A DNA stretch of 64,000 bases from an uncultured Gammaproteobacteria bacterium (GCA_964486685.1 CAZAOE010000001.1:12538-76537), one strand, 5' to 3'; positions 8,522 to 32,204 are shown, counted from the first letter of the stretch. Notes: generated by a model from the sequence alone, not told the origin. Numbers and translations are program-made.

Positions 8522-8530
8522 ATTTTTATT

Positions 8531-9124: not shown

Positions 9125-9189
9125 TTTGTGTAAATTTTAAATTTTAAGTTATAAATTTTAAATGAAAGGAAGGATTTGTGTAAATTTTA

Positions 9190-11400: not shown

Positions 11401-11665
11401 AAAAATTAAATATAGTTAATTAAGCGCCGTTAGCTCCCCCCTTCGCCAAAGCTACGGAGGGCAGGCAGTTGGTACCCAACTTCGCTAACAAAGTATATTG
11501 TAATAATTTTATATAGATATTAAAAATTAAATATAGTTAATTAAGCGCCGTTAGCTCCCCCCTTCGCCAAAGCTACGGAGGGCAGGCAGTTGGTACCCAA
11601 CTTCGCTAACAAAGTATATTGTAATAATTTTATATAGATATTAAAAATTAAATATAGTTAATTAA
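11401..11665 (+). repeat. Tandem array of 121-bp units (2.2 copies), each carrying the tRNA-Lys promoter and first 13 nt of the tRNA
   Basis: Units start at 11401, 11522 and 11643. Each has aaaaattaaatatagttaattaaGCGCCGTTAGCTC followed by a 53-nt GC-rich insert (ccccccttcgccaaagctacggagggcaggcagttggtacccaacttcgctaac). The third unit continues into the intact tRNA. Confidence 0.8.
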
Positions 11666-11741
11666 GCGCCGTTAGCTCAGTTGGTAGAGCAGCAGCCTTT
11701 TAAGCTGATGGTCGCAGGTTCGAATCCTGCACGGCGTACCA
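11666..11741 (+). tRNA. tRNA-Lys (anticodon UUU), with encoded CCA
   Basis: GCGCCGT-TA-GCTC-AGTTGGT-AGAGC-A-GCAGC-CTTTTAA-GCTGA-TGGTC-GCAGG-TTCGAAT-CCTGC-ACGGCGT-A-CCA. Cloverleaf with perfect D and T stems; 7-nt anticodon loop C-U-UUU-A-A. Confidence 0.9.
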
Positions 11742-11743
11742 TA

Positions 11744-11815
11744 AACCACTCACTGCGTTCGGGTTTATGGTAAACCATAAATTACTCACTGCGTTCGGGT
11801 TTATGGTAAACCATA
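11744..11815 (+). repeat. Tandem 35-bp repeat (x2) with internal hairpin, directly 3' of the tRNA
   Basis: ccactcactgcgttcgggtttatggtaaaccataa appears twice; tttatggtaaaccataaa is palindromic. Confidence 0.6.
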
Positions 11816-11957
11816 ACACATTTATTTTTGTAATATATTTCTCGATTTTATTTTCTCCACTCCGGTCGAAATTTTTGGCGGGATTTTTTTTATTCCCTTT
11901 TTTAAAATTAAGAGTATAATTAATTTTATTAAAAGTTAATAATTAAAATTTAATTAG

Positions 11958-13241
11958 ATGAATAAAAATTTTTTGTTTATATCCATTACTGGTTTAATAT
12001 CAGATATTGCTTGGATAGTTTCTAAAGAAGGAAATAATGTTAAATTCTATATTGCCGATAAAGAGGACCGAGATATTGGCATGGGCTTTGTGGAAAAAAT
12101 TGATGATTGGAGAGCAGAAGTTGGCTGGGCAGATGTGATTGTTTTTGATGATGTTCTTGGGCATGGTAAATTAGCTCAAGAATTAAGAGGACAGGGTAAA
12201 ATAGTAGTCGGTGGCACAGAATACACGGATTTATTAGAGGATGACCGGACCTTTGGACAAGAAGAATTAAAAAAATATGGCGTTAGTATTATTCCTTATC
12301 AAAATTTTATTTCTTTTGATGAGGCGATTAATTTTGTTAAACAAAATCCTTCTCGTTATGTAATTAAACCCTGTGGCGATGCTCCGAAAAAATTATTATT
12401 TGTCGGAGATGAAGATAACGGCCAGGACATTATTCAGGTTTTAGAGGGCTATAAAACTACTTGGTCAAATAAAATTAAAGTTTTTCAATTACAAAAAAGA
12501 GTGACTGGAGTAGAGGTAGCTGTTGGTGCCTTTTTTAACGGTAATGAATTTTTATATCCAATTAATGTTAATTTTGAAAATAAAAGAATGTTTGCCGGTA
12601 ATATCGGGCCCTCCACTGGAGAGATGGGCACCAGTATGTTTTGGAGTATGCCAAATAAAATTTTTAATGCTACCTTAAAAAAATTAGAAACAAAATTAGC
12701 TGAAGAAAATTTTGTTGGCTATATTGATGTTAATTGTATTGTGAATGGTAATGGTATTTATCCCTTGGAATTTACTTCCCGGTTTGGCTATCCAACTATA
12801 TTTATTCAGCAAGAAGGAATTAATATGCCGATGGGAGAATTTTTTTATCGTATGGCTAATGGAGAAAATTTTACTATTAAAACTAAAAGTGGTTTTCAGG
12901 TTGGAGTAAGAATTTTAATGCCTCCTTATCCTTTTGACGATGAAGAAACTTTTAATACTTATTCTAAAGACGCAGCTATAATTTTTAAAAAGCCAAATTA
13001 TGAGGGGGCGCATATTGAAGATGCAAAAATGATAGATGGTCAGTGGACAGTGGCTGGTAGTGCGGGTGTGGTTTTAACAATAGTAGGCACGGGTCAGACC
13101 ATGAGGCAGGCTCAATCCCAGGTTTATAATCGGATTACTAATATTTTAATTCCCAATATGTATTATCGGACTGATATTGGTGACCGCTGGTATGAAGATA
13201 GCGACCGTTTGCATAATTGGGGTTATTTGCGGGACTTTTAA
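11958..13241 (+). CDS. PurD-like ATP-grasp enzyme (phosphoribosylamine--glycine ligase family)
   Basis: Collinear with PurD: N-domain, then YVIKPCGDAPKK, NKRMFAGNIGPSTGEMG and EFTSRFGYP ATP-grasp motifs. Confidence 0.5.
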   Translation: MNKNFLFISITGLISDIAWIVSKEGNNVKFYIADKEDRDIGMGFVEKIDDWRAEVGWADVIVFDDVLGHGKLAQELRGQGKIVVGGTEYTDLLEDDRTFGQEELKKYGVSIIPYQNFISFDEAINFVKQNPSRYVIKPCGDAPKKLLFVGDEDNGQDIIQVLEGYKTTWSNKIKVFQLQKRVTGVEVAVGAFFNGNEFLYPINVNFENKRMFAGNIGPSTGEMGTSMFWSMPNKIFNATLKKLETKLAEENFVGYIDVNCIVNGNGIYPLEFTSRFGYPTIFIQQEGINMPMGEFFYRMANGENFTIKTKSGFQVGVRILMPPYPFDDEETFNTYSKDAAIIFKKPNYEGAHIEDAKMIDGQWTVAGSAGVVLTIVGTGQTMRQAQSQVYNRITNILIPNMYYRTDIGDRWYEDSDRLHNWGYLRDF

Positions 13242-13259
13242 ACTTTTGACTTTTGACTT

Positions 13260-14216
13260 TTAATCATTTTCATCTTCAATTTCACCAACGATTTCTTCTA
13301 ATATGTCTTCTAAAGTCACAATTCCTAATAATTGGTCTTCTCTATACACTAAAGCAATATGGTTTTTTTCTTTTTGCATTTTTCTAAATATAGTATCAAT
13401 TTTTTGCTCGGCTCGAACTTTTAAAATGGGCTGAACATATTTTTCAATAGTATTTTCTCGATGGTCACTATTTAATATTTTCATAATATCAATTAAATGT
13501 ACATAGCCGATAATATTATCTTCTTGATTGTGAAAAACCGGATAACGGCTTAGGCCCTCATGAGCCATAAAATAAGCAATTTGGTCTATTTCCGTATCGG
13601 CATTGACTATGGACATTTTATAGCGCGGAGTCATTATTTCTTTAGCGGTTTTATCATTGAATTTTAAAATATTCATAATCATTTCATGTTCTTGAAATTC
13701 AATTTCGCCCTCTTCTACAGCTAAACGGCTAAAGGCCTTTAATTCTTTTTCAGAAACGATTTTTTCGGGTTTGTTTTTGGTTATTAGTAATAATAATTTT
13801 TCCAAAATAATTATAATTGGAAAAGTTACAATTTCTAATATATATACAAGAGGACTAAAGAAAAGAGCCATTTTTTCAGCATTAATTTGAAAATATACCT
13901 TAGGATACATTTCTCCAAAGATTAATATTAAAAGAGTCATGACACCAATAGCCACACCTAAGGTAGCAGAACCTAATTTTTCTTGAATCCATAAAGTAGC
14001 CGCACTAGCTGCGGCAATATTGACTAAATTGTTTCCCAATAAAATAGTTACTAATAATCTTTTTTTATTTTTTAGCAGTTTTTGTAATAAATGGGAATTT
14101 TTTTTCTGAGCTAAAACCAAAGATTTAACTTTTGAAGCCGATAAAGAAAAAAGAGCTATTTCCATGCCCGAGAACCAGGCAGACAAACAAATTAAAATTA
14201 TAATTGCTAAAATCAT
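13260..14216 (-). CDS. DUF21 (CNNM) transmembrane domain plus tandem CBS domain protein (HlyC/CorC-type)
   Basis: N-terminal 4-TM DUF21 (LAIIILICLSAWFSGMEIALFSLS) followed by two CBS modules. Confidence 0.7.
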   Translation of the reverse strand: MILAIIILICLSAWFSGMEIALFSLSASKVKSLVLAQKKNSHLLQKLLKNKKRLLVTILLGNNLVNIAAASAATLWIQEKLGSATLGVAIGVMTLLILIFGEMYPKVYFQINAEKMALFFSPLVYILEIVTFPIIIILEKLLLLITKNKPEKIVSEKELKAFSRLAVEEGEIEFQEHEMIMNILKFNDKTAKEIMTPRYKMSIVNADTEIDQIAYFMAHEGLSRYPVFHNQEDNIIGYVHLIDIMKILNSDHRENTIEKYVQPILKVRAEQKIDTIFRKMQKEKNHIALVYREDQLLGIVTLEDILEEIVGEIEDEND

Positions 14217-14430: not shown

Positions 14431-17130
14431 ATGAAAAAAAATTATCACAGTTTAGAAACCAAAAAAGTTTTAGATATTTTAAAATCAAACGAACAAGGAC
14501 TTAGCGAAGACGAAGCCCAGAAGAGATTAAAAAAATACGGACCTAATAAAATTATAGAGCAAAAAAAGATTTCTAAATTGTTAATATTTTTTAGCCAGTT
14601 TAATAATATTTTAATTTATATTTTATTATTGGCTTCTTTAATTTCTTTTATTTTTGGTGAACATATTGATGCCGCAGTTATTTTAGTTGCGGTATTTTTA
14701 AATACTATTATTGGTTATTTTCAAGAAAGCAGGGCGCAGAGTGATCTTTCTAAATTAAGGCATTATATTAAACAGCAGGTTTTTGTCCGGCGTAATAATC
14801 GACAATATTTAATCAATGTTGAAGAATTAGTTCCTGGAGATATTATTTTAGTTCAATCTGGGTCGCGCGTGGCGGCTGATGCCCGAGTTTTAGAGGCCAA
14901 TGAATTAAAAGCACATGAAGCGGCCTTGACCGGCGAATCAATTGCAGTTGATAAAAGTTTAGAAAAAGTAGCTGTGGGAGCAGTAACTAGTGACCGAACC
15001 AATATGTTATATATGGGTACAAGTATTGTGCGCGGTAATGCTGTTGCCGTAGTTACGGCCACTGCTATGGAGACAGAAATAGGAAAAATTGCTGGTTATA
15101 TTAGCGAAACTGAAGATGAACAAACTCCTTTACAAATTAGATTAAAAAAATTAGGAACGATTATTGGAATTTTTTCTTTAATTGCCTGTAGTTTAATTTT
15201 TATTTTAGGAATTGTTTCAGGTCGAAGTGCTTTAGAAATGTTTTTAATTAGCGTCGCCATTGCGGTTTCTTCTATTCCCGAGGGTTTGCCAGTAGCAATT
15301 ACGGTTATTTTAGCAATTGGCATGCAAAGGATTTTGAAAAAAAAGTCCTTGGTGCGTAGATTAGTAGCTGCGGAAACTTTGGGCTCAACTACGGTTATTT
15401 GTACAGATAAAACCGGTACTTTAACGGTTGGGCAAATGGCGGTTAGCAATATTATTTTAGACAATGAAATCGTTGATATTCTTTCTAAAAAAGACCAGAC
15501 CCTTTCTAACAGAGTTAAAGAAATTTTAAGGATTGGTTTTTTGTGCAATGATGCTTTTTTAGAAGAGCAAGATTTATCCCAAGAATTATTAAAAGAATTA
15601 AAAATGTCTGGTTCACCAACTGACCAGGCCTTGTTATCAGCTGGTTTGGATTTTGGCTTTTCTTTAGATGAAGAAAAAAAGAATTATCCGCAATTAGCTG
15701 AAGTTACCTTTGATAGTGCTAAAAAATACATGTTAAGTTTACATGAAAATAAAGCCGAACAAGTTAATGACCGGGTGATTTTTTGTAAGGGAGCTCCCGA
15801 AGTAATTTTAGAACATTGTAGTTTCATTAATACTAAAGACGGAGTTAAAAAATTAACCGACAAACAAAAACAAAAAATTATTGCTACGCAGAATAGTTTT
15901 ACCGCCAAGGGCTTGCGTTTATTAGCAGTTGCGGAAAGAAGGATGAGCAGTAAAATCTTAAAAGAAAATTTAGATGATAATTTTGAGCATTTAGTTTTAC
16001 TGGGTCTGATTACTTTAAAAGATCCTTTGCGTCAATCATCCAAAGAAACTATTCAAGTTTGTCTGCGGGCAGGCATTAGGCCAATCATTATTACTGGCGA
16101 CCATAAATTAACTGCCAAGGCCATTGCTTTAGAATTGGGTTTAAAGGCCAAGGAAGAGCATATTTTAAGTGGTGAAGATTTAGATAAATTAAATGATGAT
16201 GATTTAAGAGAAAAGGTGAAAACTGTTAATTTATATGTTCGAGTTAATCCGCATCATAAATTAAGAATTGTTCAGGCCTTGCAGGAAAATAATGAAGTAG
16301 TGGCTATGGCTGGAGATGGAATTAACGATGCTCCGGCAATCCAAATGGCCGATATTGGCATTGCTTTAGGTTCAGGAACAGACATTGCCAAAGAGACCGC
16401 GGAGATTGTGCTTTTAGAAAATAATTTTTCGGTGATTGTAGAGGCGGTTAAGCAGGGTCGAATAATTTTTGATAATTTGAAAAAAATTGTGGTCTATTTA
16501 TTGTCAGATTCTTTTTCGGGTATGCTTTTAATTTCCACGGCCATTATTATGGGTCTGCCCTTGCCTTTATTACCAGCGCAGATTTTATGGATTAATATTG
16601 TCAACGATGCTTTACCCAACTTTGCTTTGGCTTTTGAAAAAGGAGACAAAGATACTATGCAGAGAAAGCCCTTGCCTAAGCATGCTCCGATTTTAGATAA
16701 GGAAATGAAGTTTTTAATTTTTGTAATTGGGGTTTTTACAGATATTGGAATTATTGTTTTATTTTTATATTTATTAAAATCTGGTCATGATATTGAACAT
16801 GTCCGAACTTTTATGTTTGCCGCCCTAGGAATTGATTCTTTGATTTATGTTTATTCTTGTAAAAATTTACGCAGGTCAATTTGGAATTATAAATTGTTTG
16901 ATAATAAATTTTTAATATTAGGCACCTTAATTAGTTTTATGCTTTTAATGATAGGTCTTTATGTTCCTTTTTTCCAAACTGTTTTGCGTACAGTTCCTTT
17001 GGGGGCAGAGGGTTGGACCATTATGCTCGTTGTAGCTGTTTTTGAAGTAATTTCCATTGAGTTTGGGAAGTGGCTGTTTATACGTCGCAGTGGAGAGGTT
17101 AATGGTCAAAGGTCAAAGGTCAACGCTTAA
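14431..17130 (+). CDS. P-type cation-transporting ATPase (P2-type, Ca2+/cation)
   Basis: DKTGTLT phosphorylation motif, TGES, MAGDGINDAPA hinge and 10 TM segments; 899 aa. Confidence 0.9.
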   Translation: MKKNYHSLETKKVLDILKSNEQGLSEDEAQKRLKKYGPNKIIEQKKISKLLIFFSQFNNILIYILLLASLISFIFGEHIDAAVILVAVFLNTIIGYFQESRAQSDLSKLRHYIKQQVFVRRNNRQYLINVEELVPGDIILVQSGSRVAADARVLEANELKAHEAALTGESIAVDKSLEKVAVGAVTSDRTNMLYMGTSIVRGNAVAVVTATAMETEIGKIAGYISETEDEQTPLQIRLKKLGTIIGIFSLIACSLIFILGIVSGRSALEMFLISVAIAVSSIPEGLPVAITVILAIGMQRILKKKSLVRRLVAAETLGSTTVICTDKTGTLTVGQMAVSNIILDNEIVDILSKKDQTLSNRVKEILRIGFLCNDAFLEEQDLSQELLKELKMSGSPTDQALLSAGLDFGFSLDEEKKNYPQLAEVTFDSAKKYMLSLHENKAEQVNDRVIFCKGAPEVILEHCSFINTKDGVKKLTDKQKQKIIATQNSFTAKGLRLLAVAERRMSSKILKENLDDNFEHLVLLGLITLKDPLRQSSKETIQVCLRAGIRPIIITGDHKLTAKAIALELGLKAKEEHILSGEDLDKLNDDDLREKVKTVNLYVRVNPHHKLRIVQALQENNEVVAMAGDGINDAPAIQMADIGIALGSGTDIAKETAEIVLLENNFSVIVEAVKQGRIIFDNLKKIVVYLLSDSFSGMLLISTAIIMGLPLPLLPAQILWINIVNDALPNFALAFEKGDKDTMQRKPLPKHAPILDKEMKFLIFVIGVFTDIGIIVLFLYLLKSGHDIEHVRTFMFAALGIDSLIYVYSCKNLRRSIWNYKLFDNKFLILGTLISFMLLMIGLYVPFFQTVLRTVPLGAEGWTIMLVVAVFEVISIEFGKWLFIRRSGEVNGQRSKVNA

Positions 17131-17157
17131 GGATTAAGGTGTTTTATAGTTATTATT

Positions 17158-17186
17158 AATCTCGTTTGTTAGCGGGATTTTTTTGT
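17158..17186 (+). terminator. Rho-independent terminator after the P-type ATPase
   Basis: AATCTCG tttgttag CGGGATT followed by TTTTTTT. Confidence 0.5.
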
Positions 17187-17389
17187 TTATCCCTCACCAT
17201 TTTTACTAAAATAGTGAAGGATTTACAAAACAAGCTAAAAGTTATATTCTTTAAATATAATAATGTTAATTAAATAAGATTAAATAAAAAAATATGGATT
17301 TGCGGGAGTTTAAGAAATAATTTATATGCGAAGAATTAGAAATTACAGAAGATTATGGAAGAATTTTTTCTTTTATAGATTTTTCTAAT

Positions 17390-17959
17390 GTGAATAATTG
17401 GTTTGAAAAAGATAATCAAGATTGGAACAATAAATTACTTACTGAAGATGAAAAAATAAAAATAGACCTTGAAAAATTAAAATCATTTACAGATATCTTT
17501 AGCGATAGAATTAAAATATACTATGGTGAAGATCCAAAAAATACTGGTTCGCTTAATTTTACTTATGCAATTAGAAAAATATTTGGTAAACGCAATACTA
17601 TAACGAAAGATTTACAAAGAATAAAACATTATCTTGATTTAAATGAATCACAAAATAATAGTCCATATATATCTGTAGATAAAAATGGTAAAAAATATAT
17701 AGAAATTAGAAAATGTAATTTTGATGTGGAAATTTCCGTTGATGCTATTAAAATGTTGAAAAATTATAATACTTTTTGTATTTTTTCAAGTGATGCGGAT
17801 TTTGTTTATTTAAATAGATTTTTGAAGATAAATAATAAAAAAATTATTATTGTTAAGGGTGGATATATCACCACTAAATTAAAAGAAACAGCTGATTTAG
17901 TTATTAATGCCCAAAAAATTAAAAAGCACATAGCTAAGATAGAAAAAACAAAAACCTGA
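17390..17959 (+). CDS. NYN/PIN-like domain protein
   Basis: C-terminal FCIFSSDADFVYLNRFLKINNKKIIIVKGG resembles the NYN (LabA-like) core; GTG start. Confidence 0.35.
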   Translation: MNNWFEKDNQDWNNKLLTEDEKIKIDLEKLKSFTDIFSDRIKIYYGEDPKNTGSLNFTYAIRKIFGKRNTITKDLQRIKHYLDLNESQNNSPYISVDKNGKKYIEIRKCNFDVEISVDAIKMLKNYNTFCIFSSDADFVYLNRFLKINNKKIIIVKGGYITTKLKETADLVINAQKIKKHIAKIEKTKT

Positions 17960-18184
17960 CATAGTCAGGCCCTTGTGGAAAGTTTTCCCGAATTAACCTC
18001 GGGCAGGTATAAATTAAATATAGTCAATTAAGTCAATTAAGTCAATTAAGTTATCCACAATTAAAATAAAAAATAAATTTAAATATATGGCTGATAAAAA
18101 ATTAGAACAAATTTTAATTAATTTAAGGAAAAAGGGGTTGACTAATCGTATATAATCGTATATAATCAGATATATATAAAATGT

Positions 18185-19264
18185 ATGATTAAAAACAGAC
18201 TAAATCAAAGAATAAAGATTTCTCATGAAATAATTTTAAAAGTTTCTCAAATTGATGAATTAAAGGGACAGTGGAATGGCTCTTTGGTTTTGAATCCTAA
18301 AATTTTATATCAATTACAAAAATCAGTGGTGATTACTAGCTCGGCTTCTTCCACTCGAATTGAAGGAGCACAGATGACCGATCAAGAAGTGGAGCGTTTT
18401 CTGCGTGGCATTAAGCAAAAAACTCCTCAAAACAGAGATGAGGCAGAAGTGGCTGGTTATGCTGACTTATTGGGTAGGGTTTTTGATAATTATTCCAGCT
18501 TAGAGATTACTGAAGGCCAAATTTTGGGGTTTCATAAAATCATGTTATCTTTTTCAGAAAAGGATAAAGAACATTGCGGAAAGTATAAAAACAAAAATAA
18601 TACCGTCGCTATTATTGAACAGGGTAAAATTAAAAAAATTCTTTTTCAACCTACTCTGCCTTACTTAGTTAAAAAAGAAATGGATGATTTATTAGTATGG
18701 TGGCAAGAAAGACAGGGGAATAATGATTTGCATCCTTTGGTGATGATTGCTAATTTTATTTTTGAATTTTTAGCTATCCATCCTTTTGTTGACGGCAACG
18801 GCCGTCTCTCGCGAATTTTGATTAATTTATTAATGTTGCAAAAAGGTTATGGTTTTGTTCCTTATGTTTCTTTAGAAGAAATTTTTGAGGAAAGGCAGTC
18901 AGAATATTATTTAGCTCTAAGAAAAACCCAAAAAAGTCATAAAACTAAAAATGAAGATATTACACCTTGGTTAAATTTTTTTCTTGATGTTATTTTAGTA
19001 CAAACCAAAAAAGCTTTGAATTTATTGGCAGGGAATGAAAACAGAAAATTGCTTTCTGAAGCACAAGAAAAAGTTTATAATTTATTTGTTGATGGTATTG
19101 AATTGAAGGTTTCTGAAATTCAAAAGGAAATAAAAATTCCATTACCAACAGTGAAGCAATCTATGTCTAAATTAGTAGAATATAAATTAGTTGAAAAAAA
19201 TGGACAAGGTCCAGCAACCAGATATAAAAAGATAAAAAAGATTCTAGAGAAAGATAAAAAATGA
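18185..19264 (+). CDS. Fic family protein (Fic/DOC AMPylation fold) with C-terminal winged-helix
   Basis: Canonical Fic motif HPFVDGNGRLSR. Confidence 0.85.
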   Translation: MIKNRLNQRIKISHEIILKVSQIDELKGQWNGSLVLNPKILYQLQKSVVITSSASSTRIEGAQMTDQEVERFLRGIKQKTPQNRDEAEVAGYADLLGRVFDNYSSLEITEGQILGFHKIMLSFSEKDKEHCGKYKNKNNTVAIIEQGKIKKILFQPTLPYLVKKEMDDLLVWWQERQGNNDLHPLVMIANFIFEFLAIHPFVDGNGRLSRILINLLMLQKGYGFVPYVSLEEIFEERQSEYYLALRKTQKSHKTKNEDITPWLNFFLDVILVQTKKALNLLAGNENRKLLSEAQEKVYNLFVDGIELKVSEIQKEIKIPLPTVKQSMSKLVEYKLVEKNGQGPATRYKKIKKILEKDKK

Positions 19265-19341
19265 TTGTTTAGAAAGTTTTATGAAGGTTGAAAATAGTAA
19301 ATTGATTAATTAAATAATTTAAATAATTAAAAATATTAAAT

Positions 19342-22300
19342 ATGTTTAAAGAATATTTTAAGAATATTTTAAAAACTTTAAAGCCTGGAGATGCCCGAGA
19401 AGAAAGTTTTTATCCAGCATTAAAGATATTTATAGAAAATCTCAGTGAGTTTGAAAATAAAAAAATTAGCGTTACATTATTACCCAAAAAACACGAGGGG
19501 CAGAGTCCAGATTTTAGGATTAGAGAAGGCAACAAGATCATTGGTTATATTGAAGCAAAGGATTTTCAAAAACACTCAGATGATCTTGATGAAATAGAGG
19601 ACAGTAATCAGTTGAAAAGATATAAAAAGGCATTTCCTAATTTAATATTGACTAATTTTTTTGAATTTAGATTGTATAGAAAGGGTATATTAGCAGATAA
19701 GGTACGGATTGGGCGACCTTTTATATCATATGAATTAAAAGTAGTGCCCCCAGTTGAAAATGAAAAAAAATTTATATCACTAATATCGGAGTTTTTTGCT
19801 TTTTCCATTCCAGAAATAAAAAAACCAAAAGAATTGGCCATTGAACTTGGCAATAGAACGCATTTTTTAAAAGAAAAAATATTAGAAGAAATAAAAAACG
19901 ACAATTCAGAAATTATTGGTTTTTATCAAGCATTTAAAAAGCATTTGATTATTAATTTAACAGAAGATCAATTCGCTGATCTTTATGCTCAAACCATTAC
20001 TTATGGTTTATTCACAGCCAGAACGCGGACTGCATGTAAAGAATTTAGGAGGGAAACAGCGGTAAAATTTATTCCTCAAAGCATTCCATTGCTTAAAAAA
20101 ATATTTGCTTTTATCTCGTCTGAAGAATTGCCAAAATCAATGGAATGGATTGTAGATGAAATTTCGCAAGTATTAGCCGTCGCTAATATATCTAAAATAA
20201 TAAAGGATTTTTATAAGAAAGGAAAAGGCACCGACCCTATTATCCATTTCTATGAAACATTTTTAGGTGAGTATGATCCCAAAGAAAGAGAGAAGAGGGG
20301 AGTTTATTATACACCAGAGCCAGTTGTTTCTTATATTGTTCGCTCAGTTAATCAAATTTTAAAAGAAAAATTTAATAAAAAGGATGGGTTTGCTACTTCA
20401 TCTGTAACGGTTTTAGACCCAGCTGCTGGTACGCTCACTTTTCCGGCTGAAGCAATAAAATTAGCTAAAAAGGAGATTCAAAAAAAGTATGGACCTGGTA
20501 TTTGGCAAAGCACTGTAAAGGGTCATATTTTAAAAAATTTTTATGCCTTTGAACTTTTAATGGCACCGTATGTCATAGGACACTTAAAAATTTCTTTACT
20601 TCTCGAAGAATTAGGTTATAAGATGAGAAATGATGATAAATTTAATTTTTATCTTACAAACACTTTGGAAAATGAAGCACCTGACCCAAATCAATTTCCG
20701 GGTATTTTTGAAAGAGTTTTGGCTAAAGAATCAGAGCAAGCATTAGAGGTTAAAGAAAAAATTCCCATTATGGTAGTTATGGGCAATCCACCATATTCTG
20801 GAGTTTCTGAAAATAAAGGGGACTGGATTTTGGAACAGATTAAAGAATATAGACAAATTAGGGGTAAACCACTTGGCGAAAGAAAAGATTGGCTACAGGA
20901 TGATTATGTAAAATTTTTTCGCTTTGCCCAGTGGAAAATTGAAAAATTAGGAACTGGTATTTTGGGCTTTATTACTAATCATGCCTGGATTGATAATCCA
21001 ACTTTTAGGGGAATGCGTTATTCTTTAATGAAAACATTTGATGAAATTTATATTCTTAATTTGCATGGTAGTGTTTTAAAAAAAGAAAAAACGCCAGAAG
21101 GCCAAAAAGACGAAAATGTTTTTGATATTCAACCAGGTGTAGCAATTACAATTTGTATAAAACATCAAGAAAAAATTGATGAAAAAAAAGTTTTATATGC
21201 TGAACTTTGGGGATTACGGGGAGACATTAATAAACCAAAGACGAAATATTATTATTTAAATAAGAATGATGTTAAATCGACGAAGTGGCAACCAATTATT
21301 CCTAAAAAGCCTTACTATTTTTTTGTTCCAAAATCAGAAAAAGGACATAAAGAGTATGATAAGTTTTGGAAAATTACAAACATCTTTCCTATAAATAGTA
21401 CTGGTATTGTTACTGCCCATGATCATTTTGCTATTGATTTTAAATATGAAGAATTGAAAAATAAAATTAGCGCTTTTAAATTTTCACCGCACGATGATAA
21501 TTACGTAAAAAAAGATTATCAACTTAAAGAAAATTATGCATGGCGTGTCTCTAAAGCAAGATATGAGTTAAAACAAGTTGATAACTGGCAGAATTATTTT
21601 ACTAAAATTTTGTATCGTCCTTTTGATGAACGATGGATTTATTATCATTCTTCTGTGGTCTGGCGAGTTAGAAAAAATGTTATGAAACATATGTTAAAAC
21701 AGAATTTAGCCCTTACTACTTGCCGCCAACAATCAATTGCTGGATTTCAGCACGTATTAGTAACTAATTTAATTACAGAATCTTGTTATGTCTCAAACAG
21801 AACAAAAGAGATAGGATATGTTTTTCCCCTATACCTTTACTCTTCTGAAAATAAGCAACAAACTATCCTTGATGGACAAGAAAAATTAGATTTAAAGGGA
21901 GCTCAACATAAATTAAAAATTAAGAAAGAAAAAGAACCAAATATCAATCCAGAATTATTTGACGCGCTTAAAAGTTGTTTTGACAAAGAGCCAACGCCGG
22001 AAGAAATTTTTTATTACATTTATGGTACCCTGTATTCAAATACATATAGGAAAAAATATGAGGAATTTCTTAAAATTGATTTTCCGAAAGTTCCTTTTAC
22101 AAAGGATTACAAATTATTCAAAAAAATTTCTAAACTTGGTGAGGAGTTAGTGAATTTACATCTACTAAAATCACCAAAATTGAATAAACCGTTAGCTAAA
22201 TTTTATGGAAAGAATGATAATAGTGTAAAAATCCGTAAATATGATAAAAATAAAAGACGAATCTATATAAATGAAAAGCAATATTTTGAACCAATAAATA

Positions 22301-22497
22301 AAGAAATTTGGGAATATATGATTGGAGGATATCAAGTTTTGGATAAATGGCTTAAATATAAAAAAGGCGAAACTCTGTCTACTGATGACATAAAACATTA
22401 TTGCCGGATTGCCACAACCCTAGTGGAAACAATTAAAATACAGAAAGAAATAGATAATATCTATCCTGAGATTGAAAAAAAATTAATTAATTCATGA
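19342..22497 (+). CDS. Type IIG/IIL single-chain restriction-modification enzyme (MmeI-like)
   Basis: N-terminal PD-(D/E)xK (PDFRI ... GYIEAKD), then gamma-class N6-adenine methyltransferase motifs (VLDPAAGTLTF as motif I, VVMGNPPYSG as motif IV) and a long C-terminal target-recognition region; 1051 aa. Confidence 0.6.
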   Translation: MFKEYFKNILKTLKPGDAREESFYPALKIFIENLSEFENKKISVTLLPKKHEGQSPDFRIREGNKIIGYIEAKDFQKHSDDLDEIEDSNQLKRYKKAFPNLILTNFFEFRLYRKGILADKVRIGRPFISYELKVVPPVENEKKFISLISEFFAFSIPEIKKPKELAIELGNRTHFLKEKILEEIKNDNSEIIGFYQAFKKHLIINLTEDQFADLYAQTITYGLFTARTRTACKEFRRETAVKFIPQSIPLLKKIFAFISSEELPKSMEWIVDEISQVLAVANISKIIKDFYKKGKGTDPIIHFYETFLGEYDPKEREKRGVYYTPEPVVSYIVRSVNQILKEKFNKKDGFATSSVTVLDPAAGTLTFPAEAIKLAKKEIQKKYGPGIWQSTVKGHILKNFYAFELLMAPYVIGHLKISLLLEELGYKMRNDDKFNFYLTNTLENEAPDPNQFPGIFERVLAKESEQALEVKEKIPIMVVMGNPPYSGVSENKGDWILEQIKEYRQIRGKPLGERKDWLQDDYVKFFRFAQWKIEKLGTGILGFITNHAWIDNPTFRGMRYSLMKTFDEIYILNLHGSVLKKEKTPEGQKDENVFDIQPGVAITICIKHQEKIDEKKVLYAELWGLRGDINKPKTKYYYLNKNDVKSTKWQPIIPKKPYYFFVPKSEKGHKEYDKFWKITNIFPINSTGIVTAHDHFAIDFKYEELKNKISAFKFSPHDDNYVKKDYQLKENYAWRVSKARYELKQVDNWQNYFTKILYRPFDERWIYYHSSVVWRVRKNVMKHMLKQNLALTTCRQQSIAGFQHVLVTNLITESCYVSNRTKEIGYVFPLYLYSSENKQQTILDGQEKLDLKGAQHKLKIKKEKEPNINPELFDALKSCFDKEPTPEEIFYYIYGTLYSNTYRKKYEEFLKIDFPKVPFTKDYKLFKKISKLGEELVNLHLLKSPKLNKPLAKFYGKNDNSVKIRKYDKNKRRIYINEKQYFEPINKEIWEYMIGGYQVLDKWLKYKKGETLSTDDIKHYCRIATTLVETIKIQKEIDNIYPEIEKKLINS

Positions 22498-22547
22498 ATT
22501 TTTAGGAATTAATGGAGGTGGGAGGGAATTTAAAGTAAACAATAATC

Positions 22548-23135
22548 ATGGAAATAAAAAAAGCAAAATATCAAATAGAAATTACTACTATAGCTACCGA
22601 CCACAGGCTTATTAGGGATAAGTGGTTGAATATAAAAAGAATTCTTGATGCAATTTATAAAGAACTTTCTCCATTAATAGATGATCAACAAACGATATCT
22701 ATAAATAAATTTTTTTTGCCAATAGAACAGAAAAAATTATTTCAATCTGTGCTAGAAAAAATGTGGGAAGATAATATAATAGATTATTATAATTACGAAA
22801 CACCTGGTATAACAACTTCTGAATCGATTCGTAAATTTTTAAGAGGCGAAAATTTTGTAGTAAAAAATAGAAATATTTTTGAAAATTACAGAAAAAAAAT
22901 TTCAGAGTTTTATGATTTTATTGAAAAAGATGGGAGAAAAAGATTTCCAGAAGTATATAGTATAACACAATCAAACAGTAAAAAAATAATAAATAATAAA
23001 TTAGCAGACACTAATCAACAAAACAGAAAAATTGAACCAAAATGGTGGGAAAAAACTTGGATACAAATTATAGTATTACTGGGTTCATGCGCTGGAATTA
23101 TTGGATTGTTTTTTTTGTTTACAAGTAAAAAGTGA
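22548..23135 (+). CDS. Hypothetical tail-anchored membrane protein
   Basis: Single C-terminal TM helix (IQIIVLLGSCAGIIGLFFLF); sits immediately upstream of the ftsK-like ORFs. Confidence 0.4.
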   Translation: MEIKKAKYQIEITTIATDHRLIRDKWLNIKRILDAIYKELSPLIDDQQTISINKFFLPIEQKKLFQSVLEKMWEDNIIDYYNYETPGITTSESIRKFLRGENFVVKNRNIFENYRKKISEFYDFIEKDGRKRFPEVYSITQSNSKKIINNKLADTNQQNRKIEPKWWEKTWIQIIVLLGSCAGIIGLFFLFTSKK

Positions 23136-23150
23136 TTTAGAAAAAATAAC

Positions 23151-24236
23151 ATGATAGTTGAACTACAAAAAGCTTTTGAATCAAAACAATTTCAAAATCG
23201 TCAAACAGAAACTTTAATTCCTATTGGGGTAAGTTTTAATTTTGAATATGTTTTTGAGGATTTAAAAGATTTAAGATCTATAATAATAGCTGGAGCCACT
23301 GGTTCTGGAAAATCAACCTTTAATCATTGTTTAATAACTAGTTTATTAAAACAAAATAATAATATTTCTCTGATTTTATATGATGCTAAAAGAGTAGAGC
23401 TTTTCCCTTATAATGGAATAGAATGTTTGTTGGGAGAGGTTACTACTAAGACAGATGATATAAAAGAGCAATTTGAATATTTAGAAAAAGAATTTTCTAT
23501 TAGATCTGCTAGTAAAAAAGAAGGTGTTGATATATATAAAAATTATGATCCTATAATTATAGTTATTGAAGAATGTTCGAGTATTATGTGTCAGCAAGGA
23601 GAGTATTTTAATCAAATAATTCCTAAAATCGCCAAGGAGGGTCCAGATTTGAATATGTATATAATTATATCTACTGCCCGACCAGCGATCAATGTTTTTA
23701 CTGAAGAAATAAAAGAATCCTTTTTCGCTAAAATAGCTTTTGCCACCGCTAGTTTAGATAATTCAGACACTATAATAGGAGAAACTGGAGCAGAAAAACT
23801 TTTAGGTGAGGGAGATATGTTATTTAAAAAAGGAGACGAGCCCATAAGAAGATTACAGGGTTTTTATGTTAGTGATGAAGAGGTGAAAAATGTTGTTAAT
23901 GAGGATATGGCTGGGCAGAAAGGATTAAATAATGAGCAAGATGAAATAAAAAATGAATTGGAACCAATTGATTCTAAAATTGATATTAGTAAAGAAAGAA
24001 TTAAAAGAACATTTGATCATTTTGATATTAAAGTGAAAATGGGGAAAGTTAATATTGGTCCAATGGTAACTCAATTTATAATAAAGCCTAAAAATGGAGT
24101 TAAATTATCTAAAATAATGGCCCTAGAAAATGTTTTAGCTATGAATCTAACAGCAAGGAGTGTTAGAATAGATGTTTCTTTTTTTGAAAAAGGTTTAATT
24201 AGTATTGAAGTGTCTAATTATAATTTAACTAAATAA
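23151..24236 (+). CDS. FtsK/SpoIIIE-family DNA translocase fragment: intact motor (beta) domain followed by an alpha domain
   Basis: Walker A IIIAGATGSGKST, Walker B IIIVIEE and the beta-domain end motif GEGDMLFKKGDEPIRRLQGFYVSDEEV. The C-terminal KVNIGPMVTQFIIKPKNGVKLSKIMALENVLAMNLTARSVRID matches the FtsK alpha-domain signature. Confidence 0.7.
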   Translation: MIVELQKAFESKQFQNRQTETLIPIGVSFNFEYVFEDLKDLRSIIIAGATGSGKSTFNHCLITSLLKQNNNISLILYDAKRVELFPYNGIECLLGEVTTKTDDIKEQFEYLEKEFSIRSASKKEGVDIYKNYDPIIIVIEECSSIMCQQGEYFNQIIPKIAKEGPDLNMYIIISTARPAINVFTEEIKESFFAKIAFATASLDNSDTIIGETGAEKLLGEGDMLFKKGDEPIRRLQGFYVSDEEVKNVVNEDMAGQKGLNNEQDEIKNELEPIDSKIDISKERIKRTFDHFDIKVKMGKVNIGPMVTQFIIKPKNGVKLSKIMALENVLAMNLTARSVRIDVSFFEKGLISIEVSNYNLTK

Positions 24237-24237
24237 T

Positions 24238-25266
24238 ATGCCTCATATAGATATAAATAAAAAGAGAAATGACCCCAATGCTAGAGTACCTCTGAGTTTG
24301 GCTTGGAAAGAGGAAATAATGCATTTAAATAAAGATGAACTTATAATCCCCCTAGGAAGAGACAAAAGTCAAAAACTGCATTTTATAAATTTAAAAGAAT
24401 GGCTTCATATTTTAAGTGCGGGAATGGCTCTTTCTGGTGTGGGTATGTTTAGTAGGGTTACTCTTTTTTCTCTAATTAAACAAAGATCTCATCAAGATTT
24501 AAGAATTATTTTAATTGATCCTATTCGTAGATTTAGTAATTTTAATAATATTTCTCATTTATTATTTCCAATTATTCATAAAGCTAAAAAAGCTTTATCG
24601 GCTTTAGAATGGTGCGTTTTTGAAATAGAAAGAAGATATCAGATATTATTTAAAACAAGGAAAAAAGATATATATTCTTATAATGAAAAGGGAAATCAAG
24701 TTGTATTTCCTAATATTGTAATATTTATTAGTGAGTTAGGAGAACTTATGCCCGATAGAGATATAGAAACAGCTTTGGTTAGAATAGCACAAATGGCTAA
24801 GGCCGTAGGAATACATCTTATCATAGGAACCCAGATGTTAAATAAAGAAATTATTACCGATTTAATATTTTCTAATATATCAGTTAGGGTAGGATTTCAA
24901 GTCCCTTCAGAAGAAGAAGCAGAGGTTTTAGAAATATCTGGAATGGAAACACTTATTGGTCAAGGAGATATGATTTATCAAGATTATAATGGTAAGAGAT
25001 TAGAATTACAAGGATTCCATATTAGTGATGAAGAAATAGAAGAATTTATTAAAAATGAAATTACAGATGATAGAGTGAATGAAGAATGGTTATATAAAAA
25101 AGCTAAGAAAATTATTTTAGACCAAAAGCAAGCTTCGGCTACTCTTTTACAGAGAAGATTGAGTATTGGTTATGCTAAAGCCTCTAGAATAATTGACAAA
25201 ATGGAAGAAGAAGGTTTAGTGAGTCCTCAGAATGGTCCTAAACCACGAAAGATTTTAAAACAATGA
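24238..25266 (+). CDS. FtsK-family fragment: beta domain with degenerate Walker A plus a gamma (winged-helix KOPS-binding) domain
   Basis: LHILSAGMALSGVGMFS stands where AGTTGSGKS is expected (no Lys). IILIDPI, GQGDMIYQ...LQGFHISDEE and a C-terminal ATLLQRRLSIGYAKASRIIDKMEEEGLVSP gamma motif are present. It starts 1 nt after the stop of the previous ORF. Confidence 0.7.
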   Translation: MPHIDINKKRNDPNARVPLSLAWKEEIMHLNKDELIIPLGRDKSQKLHFINLKEWLHILSAGMALSGVGMFSRVTLFSLIKQRSHQDLRIILIDPIRRFSNFNNISHLLFPIIHKAKKALSALEWCVFEIERRYQILFKTRKKDIYSYNEKGNQVVFPNIVIFISELGELMPDRDIETALVRIAQMAKAVGIHLIIGTQMLNKEIITDLIFSNISVRVGFQVPSEEEAEVLEISGMETLIGQGDMIYQDYNGKRLELQGFHISDEEIEEFIKNEITDDRVNEEWLYKKAKKIILDQKQASATLLQRRLSIGYAKASRIIDKMEEEGLVSPQNGPKPRKILKQ

Positions 25267-25628
25267 ATATCTATCTTGACATTGATGGTGTCTTATTAAA
25301 AAAGCATGGCGAACCCGCTGACAATGTTTTAGATTTTTTAAAAGAAATGACAGATAATCACGATTGCTATTGGCTAACTACTCATTGTCGTAATGGTGAA
25401 AGTAATGCCGTAGAATATTTAGAAGATAAATTACCCAATGAAGCTTTAGAATATCTAAATAAAATAAAACCAGCTTATTGGGATACTTTAAAAACTGAGG
25501 CCATAGATTTTTCAAAGAAGTTTAAATGGTATGATGATTATATAATGGAAGCAGAGGAGAGCGTTTTAAAAGAAAATAATTGTTTGGATAGTTTTGTGAG
25601 GGTTGAGAATAGTAAATTAATATATTAA
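25263..25628 (+). CDS. Small HAD-like protein
   Basis: N-terminal IYLDIDGVLL resembles HAD motif I (DxDGVL); 121 aa; overlaps the upstream stop by 4 nt. Confidence 0.3.
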   Translation: MNIYLDIDGVLLKKHGEPADNVLDFLKEMTDNHDCYWLTTHCRNGESNAVEYLEDKLPNEALEYLNKIKPAYWDTLKTEAIDFSKKFKWYDDYIMEAEESVLKENNCLDSFVRVENSKLIY

Positions 25629-25632
25629 ATAT

Positions 25633-26046
25633 ATGTCTAAAAAATTAAAATTGTTTTTTATAGTGGCTTTGTTTTTTATTATATTAACTCCCCAAATTTC
25701 TCAAGCTACAATGGCAGTTAATGAAATGATTATTAATCCCGAAACTAAAGAGTGTACTTGGTTTAATAGTGGAGATGAATGTCAGGAATGTGAAAAGCCT
25801 AGAGGGTGGGTAACTTATTCAGGGGGTGATGAAAGTTATGTAGAAGGAGAAGAATGTCCGCTGGGATATAAAAGGATCAAAGATTTAAAAATAAATTGTC
25901 ATGTTCGAGATTGGAGAGCTTTTTCTAATGCGATGTGTTCTGGTTTTATTGCTAGTAGATATGCCTTCTGGTATAAAATTTTCCCTATCATTTTAATAGG
26001 ATTAATAATAATTTTAATTATATTTTTGAAGAAAAGAAAAAAATAA
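25633..26046 (+). CDS. Cys-rich secreted protein with C-terminal membrane anchor
   Basis: Signal peptide, eight Cys in the ectodomain and a C-terminal TM IFPIILIGLIIILIIFL followed by KKRKK. Confidence 0.4.
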   Translation: MSKKLKLFFIVALFFIILTPQISQATMAVNEMIINPETKECTWFNSGDECQECEKPRGWVTYSGGDESYVEGEECPLGYKRIKDLKINCHVRDWRAFSNAMCSGFIASRYAFWYKIFPIILIGLIIILIIFLKKRKK

Positions 26047-26061
26047 AATAATTTTTCAAAA

Positions 26062-26097
26062 ATCACTTCAAGTAATATGTCTGAGGTGATTTTTTTG
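26062..26097 (+). terminator. Hairpin plus T-run terminator
   Basis: AATCACTTCAAG ... CTGAGGTGATT followed by TTTTTTT. Confidence 0.4.
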
Positions 26098-26112
26098 TTT
26101 ACTATTGAATTC

Positions 26113-26160
26113 TGTCAAGTTTAAGTTTTATTGACAAGTTGTTAATAATTAAGATACAAT
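26113..26160 (+). promoter_or_regulatory. Sigma70-like promoter (TTGACA-18-TACAAT) overlapped by inverted repeat TGTCAA-N12-TTGACA; candidate autoregulatory operator
   Basis: The -35 TTGACA at 26131-26136 is the right half of the inverted repeat; the -10 TACAAT lies at 26155-26160. Confidence 0.35.
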
Positions 26161-26169
26161 TAAATTAGG

Positions 26170-26946
26170 GTGTGGATAAGTAATAATTTTAAAAATATGC
26201 ATAAAATACAACAAAAAATTCTAAATCTTGCTGGAGACAAAAACTTGGCAAATTTAACTTTGCGTAAAATAGGAGAATTTATCGGAGAAAAAGGAAGTCC
26301 GCAAAAGATAAAACATCATTTAGAAAAATTAAAAGAAAAAGGGCTTTTGATTCAAAGTATTGATGGCAAAGAGATTAAAAGAATAAGTTCAAATAATATT
26401 GATAAAAACACGAAGTTAATATCATTACCAATTTATGGCTCGGCTAATTGTGGGCAGGCCTTGGAATTGGCTAATAATACTATAGAAGAATATTTGAAAG
26501 TTTCTAAAAGCATTTTGGGAGAGAGTTTGCTTAAAAAAATTAAAGATTTATTTGTTTTAAAAGCAGTAGGGAATTCTATGAATCAAGCCAATATTGATGG
26601 TGATTCAATTGAAGATGGAGATTATGTTATTATTGATAGAAAACAAAAAAGTCCAGATAATAGCGATTATGTTGTTTCGATAATTGATGGGGCTGCAAAT
26701 ATAAAAAAGTTTTTTGTTGATAAAAATAATAAACAAGTTGTCTTGGTTTCGGAGTCATTTTCTGATACTGCTCCAATACATATACATAAAAATGATTTAA
26801 ATGATTATTCTATTTGTGGTCGAGTGGTAAAAGTAATGAAAAGACCAGAAAATTTAGAGGCCTGGCATAATGCCGGAGCTAAGGATACTTTAAAAAATTT
26901 AGGCCCCATATCCAAAGAAGAACATAAGTATTATATGAATTTATAA
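26170..26946 (+). CDS. LexA-like repressor (N-terminal winged-helix plus S24 peptidase domain)
   Basis: LexA-type N-terminal DNA-binding domain (KIQQKILNLA...TLRKIGEFIG...HHLEKLKEKGLL). C-terminal S24 Ser/Lys dyad context (AVGNSMNQANIDGDSIEDGDYVIIDR ... ANIKKF). Confidence 0.7.
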   Translation: MWISNNFKNMHKIQQKILNLAGDKNLANLTLRKIGEFIGEKGSPQKIKHHLEKLKEKGLLIQSIDGKEIKRISSNNIDKNTKLISLPIYGSANCGQALELANNTIEEYLKVSKSILGESLLKKIKDLFVLKAVGNSMNQANIDGDSIEDGDYVIIDRKQKSPDNSDYVVSIIDGAANIKKFFVDKNNKQVVLVSESFSDTAPIHIHKNDLNDYSICGRVVKVMKRPENLEAWHNAGAKDTLKNLGPISKEEHKYYMNL

Positions 26947-27281
26947 AACAGAAGGAAATTTGGTTAGTTCAATATCCCCAAGATTCAGTCGGTCATGAAT
27001 ATCGAAAAGAACGGCCGGCTTTGGTTATTGAATCTGATTCACAAATAAAAAGAACGAAGGTTTTTAGTGTTATTCCCTTGACTTCAAATTTAAATAATAA
27101 AACCAGGGATGATATTTTAGTTAAAACAAATAAGAATAATAATTTATTCCGTGATTCAATTTTAAAAGTTCACCATTTAGAATCCTTTGATCAATTTAGA
27201 TTTATTAAAAAAATAGGCGAGATTAATGATAAGATTTTAGATAAAGTAAAAAATTATTTAAAAATTCATTTTGATTTTTGA
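26928..27281 (+). pseudogene. MazF/PemK-family toxin homolog with no canonical start codon
   Basis: The in-frame reading EIWLVQYPQDSVGHEYRKERPALVIESD...VIPLTS matches MazF (IWlVdf.P..G.E..K.RPalVis...ViPiTs). The frame opens after a TAA at 26925-26927 and has no ATG/GTG/TTG until the TTG at 27021, which is already inside the conserved core. The 5' end overlaps the lexA-like stop. Confidence 0.5.
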
Positions 27282-27443
27282 TATATTTATACATAAAAAG
27301 CGGTAATCTTTAAGCTATAAGCCATAAGAAAGATGGTCAATCCTGTTTAACGATGGGATTTTTTGATTTGATTTCTTCCAATATTTATGTTAGAATATGA
27401 GCACTTTTAGTAAAAAAAAGATTATTTTTTAGTATAAAATAGC

Positions 27444-28070
27444 ATGAAAAACAAAGCAGAAAAAGATTTAACAGCAATAGAAACAACTGAGAAAAAAAGC
27501 CATTTTTGGAAATCATCGCTCAGTTTTGTTTTAGAAATTGTTAAAACCGTGATTATATCTTTAGCTATTATTTTACCAATTAGATATTTTATTATTCAGC
27601 CCTTTATGGTAGATGGGGCCTCTATGGAGCCCAATTTTTTTGATAATGAATATTTAATTATTAATGAAATTTCCTATCGTTTCACTGAACCACAAAGAGG
27701 AGATGTAATAGTATTTAAAAATCCAGAAAACGAGACCCAATTTTTTATAAAAAGAGTAATTGCTTTGCCTAAAGAAACTATTAAAATAGAAGAAGGAGAT
27801 ATTTATATTAGAACTCAAGGGGAAGAGAACTTTATTAAAATAAATGAAAGTGATTATTTGCCAGAGATTACAAAAACATTTGGTAATATAAAAGAAATTA
27901 AATTAACAAATGATGAATATTTTGTTTTAGGTGATAATCGTAAGAATAGTAAGGATTCTCGAATCATCGGGCCGATTAAGGAAAATTTAATTATGGGTAA
28001 GGCCTGGATTAGGGGTTTTCCGATAGATAGAATTTCTGTTTTTAAAACAAATTATAATTATGGTTTTTAA
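27444..28070 (+). CDS. lepB: Signal peptidase I
   Basis: S26 motifs GASMEPNF (catalytic Ser) and GDNRKNSKDSR (catalytic Lys box), with an N-terminal TM. Confidence 0.85.
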   Translation: MKNKAEKDLTAIETTEKKSHFWKSSLSFVLEIVKTVIISLAIILPIRYFIIQPFMVDGASMEPNFFDNEYLIINEISYRFTEPQRGDVIVFKNPENETQFFIKRVIALPKETIKIEEGDIYIRTQGEENFIKINESDYLPEITKTFGNIKEIKLTNDEYFVLGDNRKNSKDSRIIGPIKENLIMGKAWIRGFPIDRISVFKTNYNYGF

Positions 28071-32188: not shown

Positions 32189-32204
32189 TAGTTTAATTGT
32201 TAAA

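Follow-up and report, generated by a model that had tools for sequence, protein, structure and literature searches.

Defence-island hotspots between conserved core genes have been described in other bacteria, and candidate-phyla-radiation bacteria are reported to lean on restriction-modification (R-M) rather than on clustered regularly interspaced short palindromic repeats. We analysed a 64,000-nucleotide (nt) stretch of DNA (CAZAOE010000001.1:12538-76537; hereafter, the window) with a G+C content of about 30%, in which a segment of about 10 kb between core genes carries, among others, a NYN-like gene, a Fic gene and a gene for a large single-chain R-M enzyme. Relatives of the last two have been characterised. 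DrdV, a Type IIL enzyme of 1029 amino acids (aa), has the same four parts as the R-M enzyme of the window; at a 7-bp site it either methylates a single strand or, following assembly across multiple sites, cleaves 10/8 bp downstream, and its methyltransferase and recognition domains have a common origin with those of Type ISP enzymes (bioRxiv 10.1101/2021.01.06.425610). BBQ67 (plasmid lp56) and BBE02 (lp25) of Borrelia burgdorferi act against foreign DNA by restriction, and each methylates one strand of its motif, CGRKA and GNAAYG, respectively (bioRxiv 10.1101/375352). Fic proteins of class 2 and of the SoFic type are reported to AMPylate their targets and to serve, each as a single protein, in defence by abortive infection; a 47-aa antitoxin encoded downstream, AS1, was described in E. 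coli (PMC12249575).

A first, sequence-only reading of the window had flagged three consecutive open reading frames (ORFs) on the + strand as an islet of defence genes. Their coordinates proved exact: the NYN ORF as called at 17390-17959 (189 aa, GTG start), the Fic ORF at 18185-19264 (359 aa) and the ORF of the R-M enzyme at 19342-22497 (1051 aa). The defence-type content was also confirmed, with PADLOC matches to the Fic protein and to the 1051-aa enzyme, and profile searches matched the NYN, Fic and N6_Mtase families with E values far below chance. The three genes are not one linked system, since the homologues of NYN and of the R-M enzyme have neighbourhoods unrelated to this one. We put the probability at roughly 80% that positions ~17287-27350 are strain-specific cargo in a genomic hotspot, and that the flagged part of this cargo consists of three unrelated single-gene modules. 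All of the components are of described kinds, and their arrangement is that of a typical variable defence hotspot.

A variable segment between core genes

Relatives were found by searching species-representative genomes with the P-type ATPase, and four had an ATPase 72-84% identical to that of the window. The CNNM-ATPase block was upstream in all four, and lepB-hisS was downstream in three (L005, L006 and L009). L006, labelled Candidatus Komeilibacteria (ATPase identity 82%), had no cargo between the ATPase and lepB, which were separated by a 273-nt spacer. In L005 (84%), the site was occupied at 6224-13348 by Type III Mod, Shedu SduA, a 149-aa ORF without a family match, DUF3800 and Type III Res, the Type III mod and res genes being split by the three others. 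L007 (72%) carried a truncated methyltransferase fragment and a DpnI-family methyl-directed endonuclease (8967-9957), and its contig ended before lepB. L009 (72%) carried a hypothetical gene and GpsA.

Nucleotide homology to L005 stopped at 17286 and resumed at 27366 (93%). Just before the left junction, the two genomes had in common a 68-nt leader (17219-17286, + strand, 88% identity), which in the window stopped 7 nt short of the NYN ATG and in L005 1 nt short of the ATG of Type III mod. The left flank also contained a terminator-like hairpin with a T-run after the P-type ATPase (17158-17186, + strand; 9-bp stem, z = -2.3), and this was 85% conserved in L005. The right flank (27339-27443, + strand) began with a hairpin and T-run at 27339-27369 that was not stabler than shuffled sequences (z = -0.83), and lepB started at 27444. 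The variable segment extends from ~17287 to ~27350 (~10 kb), between the CNNM/P-type ATPase and lepB/hisS core blocks. The insertion after the P-type ATPase suspected in the sequence-only reading is therefore a true indel, but its right boundary is lepB (27.4 kb) rather than the ftsK-like genes. A synteny check had been proposed for 17.2-22.5 kb; the segment missing from the relatives is instead ~17287-27350 and includes the ftsK-like genes. An Rfam scan of 16900-27700 revealed no RNA family.

Like known defence hotspots, the site has fixed core flanks, sharp junctions, genome-specific restriction or abortive-infection cargo and one empty site. It is unlike them in lying in a small-genome, probably candidate-phyla-radiation lineage, and in that the comparison comprises five genomes and no integrase was found. 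The small number of related genomes that define the hotspot weighs against our interpretation. At the island borders, a search for att-type repeats or a tRNA found none, only similar terminator hairpins. As it stands, the window illustrates neatly how, in a small-genome and probably candidate-phyla-radiation lineage, the restriction cargo of a defence hotspot turns over at fixed junctions beside core genes.

The host probably belongs to the candidate phyla radiation (Patescibacteria), as judged only from the label of L006 and from gene content. Two of the relatives, L005 (CAZXCJ010000024.1) and L009 (CAYRHT010000004.1), are labelled as uncultured Gammaproteobacteria and share 72-92% protein identity with the window. 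Gene order, protein identity and the Komeilibacteria label of the close relative L006 suggest that these two bins are taxonomically mislabelled.

We then compared the contexts in which homologues of the flagged genes occur. At all three loci, the homologue of the R-M enzyme (56-61% identity) was a solitary gene next to housekeeping genes such as those for tRNA synthetases and PolA, and none of these loci contained NYN, Fic or FtsK. The three NYN homologue loci were a Type I hsdM-hsdS-hsdR operon, a place beside RecQ and a group of hypothetical genes, again without Fic. As homologues of the R-M enzyme and of NYN were never found with the neighbours seen in the window, the genes appear to be separate single-gene modules. 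It might be argued that NYN, Fic and the R-M enzyme have co-evolved as one multi-gene defence system, for example as restriction backed by two abortive-infection effectors with shared control, because the genes are adjacent on the same strand, there is no terminator between Fic and the R-M enzyme, and all three families are defence-associated in PADLOC. We consider this very improbable. Besides the solitary R-M homologues at 3/3 loci, the NYN homologues (66-76% identity) never lie beside Fic, the NYN gene of the window is a nonsense mutant, and Fic and the R-M enzyme are separated by what is left of an unrelated gene. A point that counts against separate modules is that Fic may have a partner gene, the contexts covered being those of the R-M enzyme and NYN homologues.

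The single-chain restriction-modification enzyme

As judged from its sequence and predicted structure, the single-chain Type IIG/IIL enzyme encoded at 19342-22497 is intact and belongs to the DrdV/BBQ67 family. The PADLOC profile REase_MTase_IIG (PDLC03610) matched the 1051-aa protein over the full profile length (E = 2.6e-269), and PDLC03631 matched aa 16-834 (3.6e-115). Among Pfam families, Type_ISP_C (PF18135) was matched at 338 of its 342 profile positions (1.2e-85) and N6_Mtase with an E value of 1.9e-7. Four parts can be delimited on the + strand: a PD-(D/E)xK endonuclease domain (19342-19746, aa 1-135) with D57, E71 and K73; an all-helical connector (19747-20235, aa 136-298; helices H141-H292 in the model); a gamma-class N6-adenine methyltransferase (20236-21381, aa 299-680) with DPAAGT at 359-364 and NPPY at 482-485; and a target recognition domain of the Type ISP/DrdV kind (aa 681-1051; 21382-22497 with the stop codon). 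Motif I precedes motif IV and the recognition domain is C-terminal, which is the order of the gamma class, and all of this is on the same polypeptide as the nuclease. No ATPase or helicase family was matched in the enzyme by the Pfam profile searches.

The family comprises at least 7,994 proteins at E <= 1e-10. The best 120 homologues were full length (~1020-1090 aa) with 51-65% identity, and those of them named by organism came from Patescibacteria, Chloroflexota, Nitrospirota, Deltaproteobacteria and Nanoarchaeia. In an alignment of 30 sequences, the invariant positions were P56, D57, E71 and K73; Q90, R93 and Y94; D359-P-A-x-G-T364; and N482-P-P-Y485. The DPAAGT, NPPY and N-terminal PD-(D/E)xK motifs noticed in the sequence-only reading are all present, and all are invariant in the 30 homologues. 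The constancy of the nuclease residues in these 30 homologues, which span several phyla, implies that the nuclease is under selection. The least conserved part was the core of the recognition domain (aa 690-870), with a mean identity of 42% versus 64% for the methyltransferase domain. Considering this divergence, specificity probably differs among the members of the family.

In the AlphaFold2 model of the enzyme (predicted local distance difference test score, 81.1; predicted template modelling score, 0.68), the N-terminal domain has two helices and a beta-sheet in the alpha/beta layout of PD-(D/E)xK nucleases. This fold is a high-confidence prediction and matches DrdV and BpuSI; the possibility raised at the outset, that the large protein has no nuclease fold, was not borne out. 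When the model was compared with the PDB by Foldseek, the top match was DrdV (3.8e-39), end-to-end over 1136 columns. LlaBIII (3.8e-36), LlaGI (~4e-36), MmeI (1.3e-12, 12% identity) and BpuSI (6.6e-10) ranked lower.

Could the 1051-aa protein be an orphan or regulatory methyltransferase that lacks restriction and marks DNA for epigenetic regulation only? Homologues are often annotated as a methyltransferase alone, methylation by the Borrelia relatives alters transcription, and intact members such as BBH09 can be silent (bioRxiv 10.1101/375352). Nevertheless, we find this quite doubtful. P56, D57, E71, K73, Q90, R93 and Y94 are invariant over the 30 homologues, confidence in the predicted nuclease fold is high, and the gene occupies the site that other restriction systems hold in the relatives.

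The earlier description of the protein as MmeI-like was right as to the functional class, a single-chain Type IIG/IIL enzyme. MmeI itself (Type IIL; PDB 5HR4) is also a single chain with an N-terminal nuclease, a gamma methyltransferase, a C-terminal recognition domain and methylation of one strand. However, it belongs to a different family. Neither the whole protein nor its first 300 aa matched the Pfam models MmeI_N, MmeI_hel, MmeI_Mtase, MmeI_TRD or MmeI_C at E <= 10, and Foldseek favoured DrdV over MmeI by 26 orders of magnitude in E value.

DrdV (PDB 7LO5, 7LVV) is only about 20% identical to the window enzyme; the phmmer alignment starts at aa 302, and the likeness of the N-terminal parts is at the fold level only. 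The closest functionally characterised sequence relative found was BBQ67 of B. burgdorferi lp56, from a plasmid collection, with 37.5% identity over 99% of the length. BBQ67 and BBE02 are likewise single-gene systems and recognise short asymmetric motifs. They differ in being plasmid-borne in a spirochaete and, considering the divergent recognition core, probably in specificity. The Type ISP enzymes LlaBIII and LlaGI (PDB 4XQK, 5FFJ) have homologous methyltransferase and recognition domains (phmmer 4.2e-47, aa 255-1004), but the LlaBIII alignment begins at its residue 790, and the RecA-like ATPase/translocase between the nuclease and the methyltransferase is not in the window protein. Without this translocase, the translocation-and-collision mechanism would be impossible for the window enzyme, unlike for Type ISP enzymes. 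For the same reason, the database label "type ISP" is a misnomer for the family. NCBI often uses "type ISP restriction/modification enzyme" for the homologues, and many other annotations read just "DNA methyltransferase" or "N-6 DNA methylase". A corrected annotation would describe a large, multi-phylum family of helicase-less DrdV/BBQ67-like Type IIL enzymes with a conserved nuclease. The finding leaves our knowledge of how such systems work unchanged.

By analogy with DrdV and BBQ67, the enzyme would bind a short asymmetric site and use S-adenosylmethionine to methylate one adenine on one strand of the host DNA. Incoming DNA that is unmethylated would be cleaved at a fixed short distance from the site. 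Cleavage would need several site-bound molecules that join their nuclease domains, and no translocase would be involved. Some points speak against this picture. A k-mer scan of the 64 kb yielded no recognition site for the enzyme; conserved catalytic residues, being read from sequence, are no proof of restriction activity; and the Borrelia paralogue BBH09 is intact, yet showed no methylation in culture (bioRxiv 10.1101/375352).

The scan for restriction avoidance compared 5- to 7-mers with their maximal-order Markov expectation and, underpowered as it is with 64 kb, gave no asymmetric 6-7-nt candidate word. As a Type IIL enzyme would methylate its own sites, avoidance of them is not expected. 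Several palindromic-type words were strongly under-represented in the 64 kb: AGACT (17 observed, 53 expected) and AGCCT (30, 71), both of the form AGNCT, and also GCWGC (27, 54) and GATATC (14, 40). These words may be avoided on account of other restriction systems, in the host or in its community; they cannot be tied to the 1051-aa enzyme.

The NYN and Fic genes

The NYN ORF as called matched Pfam PF01936 (2.3e-11) from profile position 30 only. Homologues were collected by an exhaustive representative search (290 representative proteins, E <= 1e-3) and a word-indexed search (636 proteins). They are 220-230 aa long, with an N-terminus of the form MDLxELKK...FIDFxNVN. Compared with them, the full NYN/LabA-like gene spans 17294-17959 on the + strand (222 codons, ATG start), and the called ORF is its 3' part. 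Codon 9 is an in-frame TAA (17318-17320); the frame is otherwise open to 17959 and collinear with the homologues. The invariant residues D29, F30, N32 and V33 all fall between this TAA and the GTG of the called ORF. As this GTG is the only canonical codon for a restart and D29 precedes it, translation from there would leave out the first catalytic strand and its Asp. The nonsense codon has knocked out the NYN gene, which would at best give an N-terminally truncated product without the catalytic Asp. The NYN-like domain seen in the sequence-only reading is thus real, but the gene is not intact. Because the rest of the frame is intact, the inactivation looks recent.

Other explanations of the premature stop were rejected. 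The sequence of the lesion was the same in three independent assemblies (JGI, ENA and Logan), which rules out an assembly error. Reassignment of the stop codon was ruled out as TAA, TGA and TAG all terminate long ORFs of the window, and TAA is the commonest stop there (19 of 30 long ORFs). A frameshift or slippage in the T6 run at 17364-17369 that would rescue the start was ruled out by the homologues, which place the start at the ATG at 17294.

Members of the NYN family in different candidate-phyla-radiation lineages are 66-76% identical, which suggests horizontal spread. In two Yonathbacteria-type contigs (L066 and L068, 3204-10666), a 68%-identical NYN homologue is found inside a Type I R-M operon with the order hsdM, NYN, 151-aa ORF, hsdS, 329-aa ORF and hsdR.

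The hairpins that had been noticed between the genes are present, although they are not stabler than shuffled sequences: those after NYN, at 17955-17972 and 17987-18003, have no T-run and a z of -1.3. The tandem repeats of the NYN-Fic spacer also exist, but had been slightly misplaced. On the + strand, the 9-nt unit AGTCAATTA is repeated 3.3 times without mismatch (100% matches, score 60) at 18022-18051, not 18030-18056, and the 10-nt unit TAATCGTATA is repeated 2.5 times at 18143-18167. The best sigma-70-like promoter site of the region, TTGACT-17-TATAAT (18138-18166, + strand, 11/12 matches), overlaps the TAATCGTATA repeats and ends 19 nt before the Fic ATG. The AGTCAATTA repeat is possibly an operator.

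The Fic ORF (18185-19264) has the sequence features of a class II SoFic-like AMPylase. It matched Pfam Fic (3.2e-16) and, over its full length, PADLOC SoFic (1.2e-46). Its predicted active site HPFVDGNGRLSR at aa 199 fits HxFx(D/E)GNGRxxR, and its predicted inhibitory helix STRIEG at aa 56 fits (S/T)xxxE(G/N). SoFic has the same [ST]xxxE[GN] inhibitory motif, an active site of the form HPFx(D/E)GNGRxxR and a C-terminal helical or winged-helix domain. In the window protein, the C-terminal winged-helix region (aa 290-350) gave a marginal TrmB match of 24.5 bits versus a cut-off of 25.6. Unlike in the SoFic-type system, there is no AS1-like small ORF downstream of Fic, and a gene remnant occupies the 77-nt spacer instead. 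The Fic protein would be kept inactive by its own N-terminal inhibitory helix and, by analogy with SoFic, would act as an abortive-infection toxin once activated.

Assignment to SoFic proper meets some difficulties. The best solved relative was the Fido protein 8UQU (6.9e-35), and SoFic structures scored just 1.5e-10 against the window protein. The NCBIfam SoFic equivalog NF046030 was not reached either (57.1 bits versus a cut-off of 550). This weak likeness, together with the sub-threshold TrmB match and with the perfect triple 9-nt repeat and repeated -10 box upstream as possible operators, would also fit a housekeeping protein or a toxin-antitoxin-type autoregulator with a DNA-binding domain and no role as an anti-phage effector. 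We regard such a regulator as unlikely, considering that the PADLOC SoFic match is full-length, that the gene lies in a hotspot which relatives fill with restriction genes, and that it is not at this site in the four related genomes.

Distal cargo and the origin of the segment

The rest of the variable segment, all on the + strand, starts with a hypothetical 195-aa protein (hyp195, 22548-23135), which has a C-terminal transmembrane helix and no family and is not at the site in the relatives. Two FtsK-like ORFs follow. In the first (23151-24236), the Walker A motif of the beta domain is intact (GATGSGKST), and an alpha domain comes next; in the second (24238-25266), the beta domain lacks the P-loop lysine (GMALSGVGM) and is followed by a gamma domain. 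This unusual split architecture is kept in the closest relatives of the pair (58% and 48% identity), and the pair gave weak PADLOC matches to the FtsK-like SspH and mad8 components. At 25263-26046 there are a HAD-like gene (121 aa, DIDGV motif) and a gene for a 137-aa membrane or secreted Cys-rich protein (hyp137), followed at 26058-26100 by a terminator-like hairpin and T-run (z = -3.65).

It is conceivable that the R-M enzyme, hyp195 and the split FtsK-like motor are a two-component, translocase-assisted restriction system. The idea comes from the fact that the enzyme has no translocase of its own and shares a gene string, apparently uninterrupted by terminators, with hyp195 and the FtsK-like pair. 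If true, this coupling would amount to a counterpart of Type ISP enzymes that acts in trans, or to a novel defence built on FtsK and comparable to SspH or mad8. FtsK was missing in 3/3 contexts of R-M homologues, however, and the R-M enzyme in 2/2 contexts of FtsK-pair homologues, and we rate the coupling as very improbable.

An S24 peptidase repressor of the LexA/CI-like type (26170-26946) comes next, with a strong promoter-like site upstream (26131-26160). It is followed by a PemK/MazF toxin gene (26943-27281), whose expected start is an ATA that overlaps the S24 stop codon (ATAA). When MazF was read from 26943, it matched profile positions 1-109 with 73.3 bits; the called ORF matched positions 26-109 with 41.4 bits. 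The first canonical start, at 27021, costs 25 of the 109 profile positions. Read in this way, MazF joins NYN as a toxin-type gene with a point lesion at its 5' end, and both would be decaying via single mutations there. The S24 repressor and MazF may form a toxin-antitoxin-like pair. The hairpins with T-runs at 17158-17186, 26058-26100 and 27339-27369, together with the two best promoter-like sites, would divide the genes into three probable transcription units: NYN alone, the string from Fic to hyp137, and S24 with MazF.

The gene remnant in the Fic-R-M spacer derives from the 3' end of the HAD-like gene. It extends over 19256-19316 (+ strand) and starts at the Fic stop codon. A direct repeat of 59 nt with 85% identity pairs 19258-19316 with 25573-25631. 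The remnant reads KNDCLESFMKVENSKLIN and the intact HAD-like copy reads ENNCLDSFVRVENSKLIY, each followed by a stop codon. Between the two copies of the repeat lie the R-M gene, hyp195, the two FtsK-like ORFs and the greater part of the HAD-like gene, an arrangement that reads as the record of an earlier rearrangement.

The two FtsK-like genes, the HAD-like gene and S24 recur in another Patescibacteria contig (L062), with 58, 52, 73 and 51% identity, respectively. The FtsK block of this contig (10001-12614) has a large serine recombinase and a ParB-N6/N4 methyltransferase as neighbours, which suggests that the distal cargo originated from a mobile element. Two things weaken this suggestion: the label of mobile-element remnant is based on one homologous locus, and no recombinase, integrase or att site was found in the island of the window. 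Viral-contig scans with FtsK-like ORF 1 and the HAD-like gene found nothing, and a metagenome scan with FtsK-like ORF 2 returned generic relatives only (~35% identity).

The whole 10-kb segment could also be one decaying integrated element, resembling a prophage or an integrative and conjugative element, with the defence genes as its cargo. The joint recurrence of the FtsK pair, HAD-like gene and S24 beside a recombinase and a ParB-methyltransferase agrees with this, as do the 5' point lesions in two toxin-type genes and the internal 59-nt repeat as a sign of rearrangement. On the other hand, an integrase, att repeats or a tRNA were not found at the borders, the viral-contig scans returned no relatives, and the unrelated defence cargo of the relatives at exactly the same junctions fits a hotspot with cassette turnover. 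We consider the single element possible but somewhat unlikely. It and the hotspot model are mutually compatible.

Two further observations were made outside the variable segment. The 3' end of the P-type ATPase gene contains a tandem repeat of four AGGTCAA units (17096-17123), which encodes a non-conserved C-terminal tail; homology of the ATPase to the relatives ends at residue 886. Downstream of hisS and yqeY, two ORFs of 561 and 2938 aa (30503-41157) carry T4SS_pilin and Big_5 domains and encode giant surface- or pilin-like proteins.

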